Shown here piece by piece: positions 24,976 to 30,688 of a DNA stretch of 30,688 nt. A program made the position numbers and the translations under genes. The stretch lies in NCBI GenBank assembly GCA_015492875.1, contig WGEI01000449.1, positions 1 through 30,688 on the forward strand, in the 5' to 3' direction. The stretch's first letter is position 1, and every line of letters begins with the position of its first letter. The notes under the pieces were generated by a model that saw only the letters and a program-made list of their open reading frames with translations, was not told where the DNA came from and did no database searches. Source of the stretch: Anaerolineae bacterium (lineage in GTDB: Bacteria > Chloroflexota > Anaerolineae > Aggregatilineales > Phototrophicaceae).

Positions 24976-25962
24976 CTAATTGACAAGCCGTAAGCTTAAT
25001 CCTAATCGCCGTGCTTCGCCATCAATATGGATGATACGCGCTCGTACAATTTCGCCCTCTCGGACGACATTACGCGGGTGTAAGAATTGGCCTTCTGCTA
25101 ATTCGGAAACATGAACTAGCCCTTCTAGTCCTTCTTCCAGACAAACAAATGCGCCAAAATCTACCACATTAGTGACTTCGCCTTGAATGATTTCGCCCAG
25201 TTGGTAACGCTCATGGACAGTTTCCCATGGGTCAGGATGTAAACGTTTTAGACTTAATGCAACGCGCTGCTCCTGTTGGTCAATTTCAAGGACATAAACA
25301 TCGATTTCTTGGCCACGCTGTAAAATATCAGATGGATGAGAGACCCGTCCCCAACTTAATTCGCTGATGTGTATCAGACCTTCTATACCGCCTAAGTCGA
25401 TAAATGCGCCAAAGTCTGTCAAATTAGTGACGCAACCGCAAATAACATCCCCTGGTGATAGGCGATTAAGCAATTCGTCGCGCTCGCCGGGTTCTGCTTG
25501 TGCTGCCCTTTCCGATAAAATGAGACGGTTCTTTTCCGGTTGAAGTTCAATCACCCGCAAATTCAATACACGCCCCACATGGTCTATGAGCGCGCGTTTC
25601 TTTAGGCTTGCTTGGGCTTCTGTAGGGAAATTGAGCAGCTGGCTTGCTGGCACAAAACCCCGTAACGAGCGCCATTCAACCAATAGTCCACCCCGATTAT
25701 ATCCAACCACTTTGAGGGATAATGTTTCATCCGATTCAGCTATTTTTTGAATAACTAGCCAATCATCGCTAAATTGCTTCCGATAAAAAGGTTCATTTTC
25801 TCTAGGTGCATCGTCATGAGGTTCTAAGGTGTTGGTTTCTAATTCTTCTGGTGGAACGGAACGCGCAAACTCCCCTTCATTTAGGAGTGCCGACCAATAG
25901 CCTTCATCTAATTCTGGCGACGGTGGCTTAAATTCAGAGCGTCGCTGTTGATTATTTGGCAT
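24976..25962 (-). CDS. S1 RNA-binding domain protein (three S1 domains; short RpsA-like)
   Basis: NRGGLLV...GFVPASQL; GCVTNLTDFGAFIDLGGIEGLIHISELSWGRVSHP; GEVTNVVDFGAFVCLEEGLEGLVHVSEL. Start placed at ATG 25962 (MPNN) after a GGGGGA RBS; the ORF track uses GTG 25995. Confidence 0.9.
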   Translation of the reverse strand: MPNNQQRRSEFKPPSPELDEGYWSALLNEGEFARSVPPEELETNTLEPHDDAPRENEPFYRKQFSDDWLVIQKIAESDETLSLKVVGYNRGGLLVEWRSLRGFVPASQLLNFPTEAQASLKKRALIDHVGRVLNLRVIELQPEKNRLILSERAAQAEPGERDELLNRLSPGDVICGCVTNLTDFGAFIDLGGIEGLIHISELSWGRVSHPSDILQRGQEIDVYVLEIDQQEQRVALSLKRLHPDPWETVHERYQLGEIIQGEVTNVVDFGAFVCLEEGLEGLVHVSELAEGQFLHPRNVVREGEIVRARIIHIDGEARRLGLSLRLVN

Positions 25963-26144
25963 CGATCCCCCTTTGCTAACAATAAGAACCAGCACAGTTT
26001 AATGATGTAATCGTTGCTATGGCAAATATGCATTATTGATTCGGCAAATACCATTACATGACGTTTCGAAGTCAAGCATAGCATTAACCGCTAGAGGTGT
26101 CCAGTTGACTGAAATGGATTGTGGCTGGGAGCACTTCAAAGTGG

Positions 26145-28088
26145 TTAAGTGGTGTGGATTGTTTGATTTTCCATGTCGATGAGCGTTTGCGTGATGGCGT
26201 CTATTGCACTACGTTGTTTGCGATAAAAATCGGGTTCGCTAACCGCAAGGCGAATGGCAACATCACGCACTTTGCGGCGTTCGATGAATCGCATATGGAG
26301 AATGTTATAAATCGTCCACTCTGGGCTGGTGTATTGACGCTCACCTTCAGGTTGCTGGCGTTCAATCGCCTCTAGCAGGATAGCGCGTAAAGCTCTGGCT
26401 GGATTGTTGTCGTGTTCAGGTAGTGTTTGCCGCACAATATTCAACTCTAATAATCGGCTGCGGCTTAAACCGGGTCCGCCCCAATAATGCCGCAACGCCG
26501 CCCGAACCAATTCGCGCATTGTATTGAAGTCCGGCAGGTGTGGCGGTGTGATTATCTGGCGAGTATGGCCAGGGCGATATTCTAGCGCATCTGCTGTGCG
26601 GCGGTCTATCGCAAATTGGGGGAGTAGCCCCTCAAGCGCTGCATACATCTCTTCTTGCAGCAAAATATCATCGAGCGTTTGCTCTGCGCGATGTACCAAA
26701 TTTTTCAGCATTTCTTCTTCATCTTCATTGAGCATCAAGGTTTGATTTTGGGCTTCTATTCCCATAACGCCAATGACAGACCGTTCAATAGCATTATCTC
26801 CCGTACGGTATGTATAGAGCGGTAAAATCCAGAAATTATCCCAATACACAAAGTTTCTATGCCCACCATTAAGCGGATTGCCATTATTGAGCAAAGTTTC
26901 CAATTGGGTGTTATCAAGTTTTTCAACGGAAAGTTCGCTGTGCGCTGGTGTGATGGTACTGATAGTTTCTAGCCCATTATCGTTGACAATCGCAATAAAG
27001 GCAGTGCTCACCCGCAAATAATCACAAGTAGCTTCAAGAATTGCTGCTAAAAGTTGTTCGAGATCACTTCGTGTTAATAAACGCTCGCTCAATGATTGCA
27101 ACTTGCCGAGTTGGGCAACATCTTCTCCCGCATAAATCAGAGACCGTTCTAGCCATGGTAAAGCTAATGCAATGCTCCATTGCCAAGCTAAAATTACCGC
27201 TACCACCGCGAACGGCTTGAATACCTCGCCTTCTAAGCCCAATATGCGCGATGTGGGCGTTAAAAAAGTCATCATCACCAGCGCAACTAAGGCGGTACCG
27301 GGACCACGCAATAGGAATTTCAATAGCTCTAATTTTACAACGCGGTCTGGTCTACTAGAGCCGAAAAATGATAAGGGATAGGCGAGGAACAGTAGCATTA
27401 AAATGACCACGATATTGGCGACATTAACGAATACCATTGCCCAGAAGCTAAATTCTTCTCCCGGCCCTAATAGCACAGAAAACGGGAACAAGCCCATCAC
27501 TGGGGTTAACATGGCAAATTGCAAGTAGGCCATGCGTCGCTGTGTGCTGCGGGTTAAACACCGTTGCTTGGCGCGTTGCACATTAATGAATGCCACTATA
27601 GTGGCAACGACGTAATAGAACATGAAAATTGGGAACATCGCATCTGCGCGTAAACCAGCGGGCATTGGCGGCGTTGTTGGGCGAACAAGGATATTCGTTA
27701 GGCCAGCCATAGCGAGAAATGCCCCGCTAACACCATAGAGAATGCGAATAATGCGCTTTCTCCTGCCACGTGAAGGGAGGCCGGTTGTTGCCAATAATGC
27801 ATCTGATAGATGTAAAAGGGCTGCTGGCAAAAATGCAATGCCAATCCACTGTAAGCGTAATGTGGCAATATGAATGTTTCTGGTGGGTTCTAACGCAATA
27901 AACGCATCAGCGGCATAAGCGACTGTGACACAGGCCAACACAATAGCAGAGGTGCGGGCAACGCGATTGTCTAAGTTTTTGGTGAGGTTATAAAGTAAAA
28001 GAGAAGCTGCGACTATGACAATGGCGCTGGTGAGCACTTCATTGAGCAGGTCTAGAAACAAAATGATGAAATCATCAGTTGCCAGCAT
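26145..28088 (-). CDS. Multi-pass membrane sensor (HisKA_7TM-like) + GAF-like + C-terminal HTH; no kinase core
   Basis: About 9 hydrophobic segments in aa 1-310, including LRLQWIGIAFLPAALLH (7TM-like). GAF-like segment LLAAILEATCDYLRVSTAFI...ILPL...IGVMGI...LNEDEEEMLKNL. C-terminal ILHMRFIERRKVRDVAIRLAVSEPDFYRKQRSAI is HTH-like. No H-box, N-box or G-boxes seen. Confidence 0.7.
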   Translation of the reverse strand: MLATDDFIILFLDLLNEVLTSAIVIVAASLLLYNLTKNLDNRVARTSAIVLACVTVAYAADAFIALEPTRNIHIATLRLQWIGIAFLPAALLHLSDALLATTGLPSRGRRKRIIRILYGVSGAFLAMAGLTNILVRPTTPPMPAGLRADAMFPIFMFYYVVATIVAFINVQRAKQRCLTRSTQRRMAYLQFAMLTPVMGLFPFSVLLGPGEEFSFWAMVFVNVANIVVILMLLFLAYPLSFFGSSRPDRVVKLELLKFLLRGPGTALVALVMMTFLTPTSRILGLEGEVFKPFAVVAVILAWQWSIALALPWLERSLIYAGEDVAQLGKLQSLSERLLTRSDLEQLLAAILEATCDYLRVSTAFIAIVNDNGLETISTITPAHSELSVEKLDNTQLETLLNNGNPLNGGHRNFVYWDNFWILPLYTYRTGDNAIERSVIGVMGIEAQNQTLMLNEDEEEMLKNLVHRAEQTLDDILLQEEMYAALEGLLPQFAIDRRTADALEYRPGHTRQIITPPHLPDFNTMRELVRAALRHYWGGPGLSRSRLLELNIVRQTLPEHDNNPARALRAILLEAIERQQPEGERQYTSPEWTIYNILHMRFIERRKVRDVAIRLAVSEPDFYRKQRSAIDAITQTLIDMENQTIHTT

Positions 28089-29459: not shown

Positions 29460-29462
29460 AGC

Positions 29463-30688
29463 TTACTCCTCATAGAGATAGTCGCGCAAAATAACATGTG
29501 CGGAGGATTGGCGCAGGCGGTTTAGGGCTTGCGCTTCTAGCTGACGCACACGTTCACGCGTCACGCCAATAGTTTGCCCAACTTCTTCTAGCGTATAGAT
29601 GCGCCCATCAGCCAGCCCATAGCGCAACCGCAAAATTTGCGCTTCGCGCGGCGGCAACTTGTCTAGCGCTTGCTGGAGTTGCTCCTGTAGCAGGTGTGTC
29701 GCTACTTCTTCTGCAGGGGCAGGGCTGTTGACATCTTCTACAAAATCGCCAAAGGTGCTATCGCCTTCATCATCGATGGGTGTTTCAAGGCTCACTGGGC
29801 GACGGGCGATTTCCAACAGATTTTCTACTTTATCCGGTGTGGTTTCCATGCCCTGCGCCAGCTCTTCAATGGTTGGTTCGCGTCCCAGCTCTTGCAAAAG
29901 TTGCAACTGAACCCGCCGCATGCGATTGAGCTGGTCGCCCATATGGACAGGCACGCGGATGGTGCGCCCTTGGTCTGCTACGGCACGGCTAACAGCTTGT
30001 CGAATCCACCATGTGGCATAGGTGCTGAACTTATGGCCACGCTGGTATTCAAATTTGTTGGTAGCACGAATTAAGCCGATATTGCCCTCTTGAATTAAGT
30101 CTAAGAATGGCACGCCTCGGCCTATATACTTCTTGGCAACACTAATGACTAAACGGGCATTAGCGCGGATAAGATGCTCTTGTGCCAGCTCGCCATCGAT
30201 GATAGTTTGCTTCAAGTCATATAGCTCATCATCGGTGAAAGCGTGTTCGCCCAATTCCTCGATTTTTGCGCGCGCCATCTCCGCCGCTTCCATACGCTTG
30301 GCAAGGTCAACTTCTTCCTCTGCTGTCAGCAATGGCACACGTCCCGCCTCTTTTAGATAGAGGCCGACAACGTCATCGGTATCTAGCGCTTGTTGGTAAC
30401 CTGCGTCATTGGTCAAATCAATATCTGAGAAGAGCAATTCAAGCTCATCATCTTCTGGCTCTTCTTCATTTTCAATCTCAAGTTCGATGCTGTCATCAAG
30501 TTCAGTTTCAGCATCGTCTTCAGATAAATCTTCTACTTTAGCAGGAGACGGTTGACCACTAGGAATAATGTCGATCCCCGCCTCTAATAGGGCATCCATA
30601 ATCTCGTCTAACAGGGCGATATCCTGCTCGACATTGGGCAACATCGCCAAAATTTCATCATAGGTGATGTACCCTTGCTTATGTGCCC
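29463..30688 (-). CDS. rpoD: RpoD/SigA-family sigma-70 factor (5' end outside the window)
   Basis: Frame stays open to the window edge ([16 protein letters not shown] = region 1.1). Region 1.2 [12 protein letters not shown]; region 2 [11 protein letters not shown]...[30 protein letters not shown]; region 3 SLETPI; region 4 TLEEVG...[14 protein letters not shown]. It may be a paralog rather than the housekeeping copy. Confidence 0.9.

Follow-up and report, generated by a model that had tools for sequence, protein, structure and literature searches.

What, if anything, ties together a sigma factor, two membrane proteins, an acetyltransferase and an S1 RNA-binding protein whose genes lie side by side in a bacterium of the Chloroflexota? 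The question arises from a stretch of DNA of 30,688 nucleotides (here called the window), which is the whole of contig WGEI01000449.1 of an Anaerolineae bacterium. The initial annotation of this DNA saw in the five genes a single signalling unit that could switch transcription and translation initiation together. The answer developed below is narrower. With somewhat better than even confidence, the larger of the two membrane proteins, which has seven-transmembrane (7TM), GAF-like and helix-turn-helix (HTH) parts, is read as a membrane-integrated one-component regulator. It has a GNAT acetyltransferase as its class-wide partner and a LiaF-like membrane protein as an accessory specific to the order, and the promoter of a second RpoD-like sigma factor would drive the genes of all three.

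The contig (C449) belongs to a metagenome-assembled genome of 598 contigs that is 86% complete. The public sequencing runs that hold this DNA are four DNA runs of one hydrothermal-vent metagenome study, and one of the four is probably its source. Related records are labelled Anaerolineae, Aggregatilineales, Phototrophicaceae and Flexifilum, and the order is described as one of filamentous Chloroflexota. The features of interest, with amino acid residues abbreviated as aa and nucleotides as nt, are the following.

29463 to beyond 30686, minus strand: RpoD-like sigma-70 factor, about 429 aa in full, with its 5' end off the contig
28671-29459, minus strand: LiaF-like membrane protein, 262 aa
28101-28664, minus strand: GNAT acetyltransferase, 187 aa
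26145-28088, minus strand: 7TM/GAF/HTH membrane protein, the putative sensor-regulator, 647 aa
26634-27071, minus strand: GAF-like domain of the 7TM protein, residues about 340-485
26151-26528, minus strand: predicted sigma-4-like HTH domain at the C terminus of the 7TM protein, residues about 521-646
26075-26103, minus strand: predicted sigma-70-type promoter of the S1 gene, within the 182-nt spacer (promoter scan and aligned spacers)
24976-25962, minus strand: three-domain S1 RNA-binding protein, with three Pfam S1 stretches
22273-24846, minus strand: FtsK DNA translocase (Pfam FtsK_SpoIIIE, FtsK_alpha and FtsK_gamma)

The five open reading frames from the sigma factor to S1 all lie on the minus strand. 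The gaps between them measure 3, 6, 12 and 182 nt in succession, as the initial annotation had it. The sigma gene runs off the window, and its remaining 22 codons at the 5' end, together with the region upstream, are found on contig C219, which overlaps the end of the window by 66 nt.

Is the arrangement of these genes conserved? A profile of the 647-aa 7TM protein finds relatives in 353 species genomes, and synteny was read from the best 80 loci. These carry 7TM proteins 50-60% identical to that of the window and are labelled Anaerolineae, Chloroflexi or Chloroflexota, 'uncultured Chloroflexia' or plain 'bacterium'. The sigma, LiaF-like, GNAT and 7TM genes are colinear in all 69 of the 69 species loci with sufficient upstream sequence, so the neighbourhood proposed in the initial annotation is conserved for its first four genes. 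The median stop-to-start distances between the four are 5, 9 and 4 nt, the first of these (sigma to LiaF-like) being taken over 76 genomes. Because it recurs in every one of these related species genomes, the four-gene arrangement is more than chance, and the four genes are packed as one operon-like unit in the order Aggregatilineales. Their spacing suggests that they are co-transcribed. S1 adjoins the 7TM gene in 66 of 70 related loci with a median spacer of 152 nt, and ftsK follows S1 with a median spacer of 131 nt. These are ordinary intergenic spacers, and S1 and ftsK are separately promoted conserved neighbours outside the four-gene unit.

What kind of protein is the 7TM protein? In its AlphaFold2 model, which has a predicted local distance difference test (pLDDT) score of 76, residues 1-317 form about nine long helices and residues from about 340 to 485 an alpha/beta domain; a disordered linker and a helical C-terminal domain follow. 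Conserved Arg-rich loops (RGRRRR, RCLTRxTRRRM and PDRVVK) lie on one face of the model. By the positive-inside rule, the N terminus is predicted to face outward and the C terminus inward. The family HisKA_7TM matches the protein weakly (18 against 28.6) and is on record for many of its homologues. Pfam GAF also matches weakly (E 1.7e-3, 19.3 bits against a cut-off of 22.4), as do the GAF structures 3ci6, 2w3e and 5m82 in Foldseek (TM-score to target 0.46-0.56, E about 1e-2). With the full-length model, Foldseek returns only weak matches to G-protein-coupled-receptor-like 7TM folds and GAF domains, and a sequence search of the PDB with the family profile gave nothing meaningful. No HisKA, HATPase or receiver (REC) domain is found in the protein with Pfam or NCBIfam. 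The idea of a sensor histidine kinase was rejected, HisKA and HATPase_c being without a match.

The C-terminal domain is more clearly modelled. Its 138 residues were folded alone with a 24-row cross-class alignment, and the resulting model has a pLDDT of 94.6. In a VIA-align search with this domain, sigma-factor chains, matched over region 4 with Z of 5.1-7.8, make up most of the top 30 rows. They include SigL, BldN, SigH, CnrH, SigW, SigB, SigR, SigK and SigD; SigL reaches a Z of 7.8, and BldN a Z of 7.4 with a root-mean-square deviation of 1.3 over 59 residues. LuxR-type domains match the same fold and rank below the sigma chains. The best match in Foldseek is again region 4 of SigL (3hug), with a TM-score to target of about 0.7. 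Among sequence families, Pfam Sigma70_r4 and GerE (PF04545, PF08281, PF00196) do not match the domain, and DUF1492 does so weakly (E 2.7e-3). The recognition-helix motif D-x-Y-R-K-Q-R, and within it R-K-Q-R, is invariant or nearly so from the Anaerolineae to the Chloroflexia. The model places the C terminus in the sigma-region-4/LuxR-type HTH fold, an assignment based on fold and not on a sequence profile. The sensor-regulator type named in the initial annotation is upheld in this form, that of a membrane protein that lacks kinase domains and combines a GAF-like domain with an HTH recognized by fold and not by Pfam.

Further Chloroflexota proteins, such as those encoded at 1952-3298 of locus L122, 1024-2442 of L121 and 1501-5211 of L124, also carry the sigma-4-like module (ALxHLYDxxxLxxHPL ... 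YR-rich helix). In one of the module-bearing proteins it precedes a receiver domain, and in one it follows an nSTAND2 NTPase. Another, of 1237 aa, carries it at the C terminus and has no Pfam match. By analogy, such fusions with receiver and STAND NTPase parts look like the behaviour of a DNA-binding output domain.

The 7TM protein is widespread in the phylum. In a sample of 301 Chloroflexota genomes, 66 have the full-length protein, and 12 more match the C-terminal module only. It is nearly always encoded once per genome, and full-length copies come from several families of Anaerolineae as well as from other classes; Chloroflexus, Oscillochloris, Roseiflexaceae and Kouleothrix are among the source names. 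The family counts 816 representatives at E<=0.001, and the homologues seen bear the annotation 'hypothetical' or 'histidine kinase N-terminal 7TM domain-containing'.

How old is the cluster itself? Twenty distant loci were compared, among them nine from other Anaerolineae families and nine from Chloroflexia-type families (f25, f41, f62). The unpublished genome G247 carries none of the conclusions. In the other Anaerolineae families the block consists of a purine-nucleoside-phosphorylase-like gene, a gene for a 226-aa membrane protein, GNAT, 7TM, in some loci S1, and FtsK. The sigma and LiaF-like genes are absent from it. GNAT lies directly upstream of 7TM in 6 of the 9 loci, with gaps of -4 to 51 nt. 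The 226-aa protein upstream of GNAT (cluster 5) was compared with the LiaF-like protein as a possible diverged form of it and is unrelated.

In the Chloroflexia-type loci, REC, hybrid-kinase or GGDEF genes follow 7TM in 5 of 9. At three of them (L112, L113 and L116) the series is a single-domain receiver (123-125 aa), a GAF-PAS hybrid histidine kinase (957-973 aa) and a REC-GGDEF protein (527-533 aa), and at the other two (L110 and L117) a REC-REC-GGDEF protein stands alone after 7TM. These neighbours hint at a link to cyclic di-GMP or two-component signalling. The regions upstream of the Chloroflexia 7TM genes contain extended -10 promoters (TGnTATAAT), and no shared operator-like motif was seen there by eye.

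The other half of the cluster has a history of its own. The window sigma gene is preceded by a DUF4340 gene, itself preceded by an ABC_transp_aux (GldG-like) gene. In one genome of another family (G063), the orthologous sigma factor (404 aa, 60% identical, with region 1.1) is likewise preceded by ABC_transp_aux-DUF4340 genes, and it lies 800 kb from the 7TM gene of that genome. Even a profile search of five high-quality genomes from other Anaerolineae families did not bring up the LiaF-like protein. On the gene content of the distant loci, the context of the G063 sigma gene and the absence of the LiaF-like gene elsewhere, the cluster consists of two older blocks that were fused once in the ancestor of the order and kept since, with a lineage-specific LiaF-like gene between them. 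The link of sigma and LiaF-like to GNAT-7TM is confined to this order, and the old functional pair is most plausibly GNAT-7TM.

Which sigma factor heads the unit? Pfam regions 1.1, 1.2, 2, 3 and 4 are all matched, the N-terminal part of region 1.1 being encoded on C219. The protein is 73-79% identical across the 80 species loci of the order and 60-68% identical within the class. The genome has at least three RpoD-like genes, and Pfam recognizes region 1.1 in this one only. On contig C538, dnaG (682 aa) is followed directly by an RpoD of 557 aa (locus L093, 1303-5058), which has an acidic N-terminus, no Pfam region 1.1 match and about 165 inserted aa that separate region 1.2 from region 2. This dnaG-linked paralogue is the only one to pass TIGR02393 RpoD_Cterm (360.2 against a cut-off of 354). 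The window sigma scores 337.4 on that model and stays below the cut-off for every RpoD equivalog. Relatives have a long dnaG-linked sigma and three or four shorter ones, and the adjacency of dnaG and a sigma gene is found in 4 of 5 distant Chloroflexota genomes. The window sigma is a second, class-wide RpoD paralogue with region 1.1 and not the dnaG-linked RpoD, as the initial annotation had suspected. On sequence, either of the two conserved RpoD-like proteins may be the housekeeping sigma factor of the Anaerolineae, a question that is now explicit and testable.

Two RpoD-like genes of this genome are broken at contig ends with short overlaps, one between window positions 30621-30688 and the end of C219, the other, which is the third RpoD-like gene, between the end of C386 and the start of C589. 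The assembly probably broke at both genes because of the paralogous sigma sequences.

Upstream of the sigma gene lies a conserved promoter, cTTGACAag-N17-TAATGT (C219, 2894-2925), which recurs in relatives (L015-L062, about 350 nt upstream of sigma). Between this promoter and the gene there is a 5' leader of about 225 nt; promoter and leader together take up positions 2894-3149 of C219 (L097). In most relatives the leader contains an 8-bp hairpin 30-70 nt before the ATG, with compensatory changes at 6 pairs. The window genome (G000) has a different hairpin at this position, and Rfam has no match for the leader.

The LiaF-like protein consists of an N-terminal transmembrane hairpin of two helices and a beta-rich C-terminal domain. 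It passes the LiaF-TM family (PF22570) with 28.4 bits against a cut-off of 27, and both this family and LiaI-LiaF-like_TM1 (PF18917) match 24 of 24 orthologues. The C-terminal LiaF domain (PF09922) is matched weakly (17.7 against 29; E<0.01 in 7 of the 24 orthologues), and NF040535 scores 20.1 against 57. The GNAT protein matches Acetyltransf_1 with 52.3 bits against a gathering threshold of 20.7 and has a conserved R-R-x-x-I-G motif. The closest relatives of solved structure are putative streptothricin/nourseothricin acetyltransferases (E 5e-9). Identification as a streptothricin acetyltransferase or as RimI was rejected, the scores being far under all NCBIfam cut-offs (Sat4 37.5 against 380, RimI 31.2 against 86.4). 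The protein forms a distinct orthologous group.

How might these parts work together? In the reading favoured here, the 7TM protein would act as a membrane-integrated one-component regulator. Its 7TM-type domain, possibly with the GAF-like domain, would sense a membrane or envelope cue, and the tethered sigma-4-like HTH would bind DNA and control target genes directly from the membrane. The GNAT protein would be an old, class-wide partner that serves as modifier or effector, and the LiaF-like protein a lineage-specific accessory. Their position behind the sigma gene would tie the expression of the LiaF-like, GNAT and 7TM genes to the sigma promoter.

Several observations weigh against this reading. 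The fold-match Z values of 5-8 are middling by VIA-align's own note, and the case rests on the uniformity of the matches. When the profile of the C-terminal domain is compared by hhalign with region 4 of the genome's own sigma, the alignment falls in the expected register and is not significant (probability 1.4%). GNAT is missing beside 7TM in 3 of the 9 other Anaerolineae loci and in other classes. The juxtaposition with sigma and LiaF-like arose only once, and it may have persisted through operon inertia and not through function. Finally, co-transcription is argued from gene spacing.

Inertia leads to the alternative that survives best, namely that there is no functional unit at all. A housekeeping-type sigma gene would have been rearranged beside unrelated genes in the ancestor of the order, and the arrangement would have been kept by descent and by dependence on the sigma promoter. 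This is judged unlikely, with appreciable weight all the same. What lies upstream of the sigma gene (ABC_transp_aux-DUF4340) is ancestral, and what lies downstream is different in another family; the sigma factor is strongly conserved (73-79%) and has region 1.1 as a primary sigma does; and the adjacency of FtsK and S1 is plain synteny. Against it, the tight gaps, 3-12 nt in the window, persist in 69 of 69 species although protein identity has fallen to 50-60%, and the GNAT-7TM pair is conserved independently of sigma, across the class. Inherited synteny also leaves the role of the 7TM protein unexplained.

A second alternative concerns the C-terminal domain. Instead of binding DNA, it could be a sigma-4 mimic of the PhyR type that controls the co-encoded sigma factor from the membrane, with the beta-flap of RNA polymerase, an anti-sigma-type protein or the C-terminal domain of the LiaF-like protein as candidate partners. 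The fold is nearest to sigma region 4 proper, including chains from anti-sigma complexes (3hug, 6dxo, 4cxf, 5wuq), the 7TM protein has no region 2, and in this order it shares an operon with a full sigma factor. Yet the 7TM family long predates its association with the sigma gene, and in other proteins the module presumably serves as output to a receiver domain or a STAND NTPase. The recognition helix keeps its basic R-K-Q-R residues, and LuxR-type DNA-binding domains share the fold. These points make the mimic improbable.

More generally, the tethered sigma-4-like domain, the LiaF-like protein and the GNAT protein could directly control the co-encoded RpoD paralogue at the membrane, by mimicry, sequestration or acetylation. 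Such direct control is very doubtful. If true, it would give the Aggregatilineales a membrane-gated choice between two primary-like sigma factors, and we know of no mechanism of that kind described for group 1/2 sigmas.

Does S1 belong to the unit? The S1 protein begins with a low-complexity, disordered tail of about 80 aa, and three S1 domains come after it. On the S1 model PRK06676, which has 391 positions, its alignment covers 95-348 and its score is 273 against a cut-off of 368; no bS1 cut-off is reached. It contains no equivalent of the first, ribosome-binding domain. In E. coli, the first domain is what anchors S1 to the ribosome. Since this domain is absent, the protein is probably a free RNA-binding protein and not ribosomal bS1. 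Three four-domain S1 paralogues are encoded elsewhere in the genome, which makes four S1 paralogues in total. Two of the four-domain genes (410 and 415 aa) form a tandem pair at a distance of 6 kb downstream of pnp (locus L095 on contig C590, 12086-14872), and the third lies on contig C428 (locus L096, 3060-4367). The paralogue counts called for by the initial annotation therefore find that neither the sigma nor the S1 gene of the window is the only copy of its kind.

The spacer before S1 is informative as well. Thirty aligned 7TM-S1 spacers give the consensus TTGACAA-N17-TATAAT, in which T, A, T and T of the -10 box are invariant. The copy in the window reads TGGACA-17-TATGCT and has an upstream TG. 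Downstream of this promoter follow a U-rich stretch, a Shine-Dalgarno (SD) sequence AGGGGGA and the ATG. The start of S1 is the ATG giving MPNNQ, which is backed by the conserved SD sequence and by alignment with relatives. S1 thus has a conserved promoter of its own, with read-through from upstream still possible; no strong terminator was found between the 7TM stop codon and the S1 promoter. In other Anaerolineae, S1 is missing between 7TM and FtsK at L102 and L106, where ftsK comes directly after 7TM, and missing near 7TM at L098 and L103-L105. The conserved promoter that S1 has to itself in the 182-nt spacer, and the absence of the gene from some of these clusters, place S1 outside the tight unit.

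The five-gene unit of the initial annotation is thereby reduced to a conserved order of four, and even with S1 set aside the genes are not one ancient module, because sigma and LiaF-like joined GNAT-7TM only in the Aggregatilineales. Its stronger form, in which all five genes make up one unit that switches transcription through sigma and translation initiation through S1, with GNAT acetylating sigma or S1 and the LiaF-like protein gating 7TM, can draw on the co-orientation and adjacency of all five genes in 66 of 70 related loci, on possible read-through into S1 and on sigma and S1 both being paralogues and not sole copies, but is highly unlikely given that S1 has a conserved promoter and leader of its own and is missing at the six loci just named, that the sigma and LiaF-like linkage is confined to one order and that a three-domain S1 lacking the ribosome-binding domain gives no sign of a role in initiation. 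Nothing was found that links the cluster to translation initiation.

Some further observations concern the surroundings. A GC-rich hairpin of 9 pairs (window 24934-24959, minus strand) lies 17 nt past the S1 stop codon and before ftsK. It is terminator-like, with a poor T tract. A gene for SRAP (SOS-response-associated peptidase) lies at 21578-22267 on the plus strand, convergent with the end of ftsK. Rfam has no match in the window between 22000 and 30688. PADLOC finds no defence system: the sigma factor alone matches MzaA, through the general sigma core, and the other four proteins have no match.

What does the proposed membrane-integrated regulator mean for the organisms that have it? Its parts are of known kinds, and neither the 7TM architecture nor the operon is known to have been described. 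To our knowledge, gene regulation has hardly been studied in the Chloroflexota, and nothing on this cluster was found in the literature on Chloroflexi sigma factors and HisKA_7TM. Defined here are a phylum-wide, uncharacterised family of polytopic membrane proteins with a predicted sigma-4-like output domain and a class-wide GNAT partner, and an order-wide operon that places GNAT and 7TM behind a second, region-1.1-bearing RpoD paralogue. If the protein does bind DNA from the membrane, it would be a new architecture among membrane-integrated one-component systems and would offer a handle on envelope or filament signalling in wastewater and sediment organisms.

Several known systems resemble parts of the cluster. 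Cyanobacteria, Actinobacteria and Chloroflexus have several group 1/2 RpoD-like sigma factors per genome, one encoded after dnaG and the others elsewhere, and the same is found here. The difference is that here the paralogue not linked to dnaG carries the canonical region 1.1 and heads an operon with membrane-signalling genes. The S1 protein resembles the CvfD/GSP13 family and the three-domain S1 proteins of cyanobacteria in having S1 domains without the full bS1 architecture, and its single domains pass the score of the CvfD family (123.9 against 117). It differs from CvfD/GSP13 by its three tandem S1 domains and its disordered tail of about 80 aa.

The LiaFSR system of Firmicutes, which serves in cell-envelope stress, also combines a LiaF-type membrane protein with a membrane sensor and an HTH output of the GerE/LuxR class. 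In contrast to LiaFSR, the cluster has no match to HisKA, HATPase or REC and so neither a histidine kinase nor a receiver domain. Sensor and HTH are fused, the transmembrane domain of the sensor is of the HisKA_7TM type and not of the LiaS type, and the LiaF-like protein has a weak match in its C-terminal domain and is confined to this order.

The domain at the C terminus has its closest structural counterparts in region 4 of extracytoplasmic function (ECF) sigma factors and in PhyR-type domains. Its C-terminal 90 residues superpose on SigL, BldN, SigW and SigR with Z of 6.8-7.8. Unlike an ECF sigma factor, the 7TM protein has no sigma-2 domain and so cannot act alone as a sigma factor, and its sigma-4-like domain is tethered to a polytopic membrane domain.

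A parallel in overall plan is provided by the one-component regulators ToxR, CadC and TcpP. These unite membrane anchoring or sensing and a cytoplasmic DNA-binding domain in one polypeptide, without a phosphorelay, and the 7TM protein would follow the same plan. The order of its parts is different. ToxR, CadC and TcpP have an N-terminal winged-helix domain, a single transmembrane helix and a periplasmic sensor, whereas the 7TM protein has about nine predicted transmembrane helices at the N terminus, a GAF-like domain predicted to be cytoplasmic and a putative DNA-binding HTH at the C terminus.

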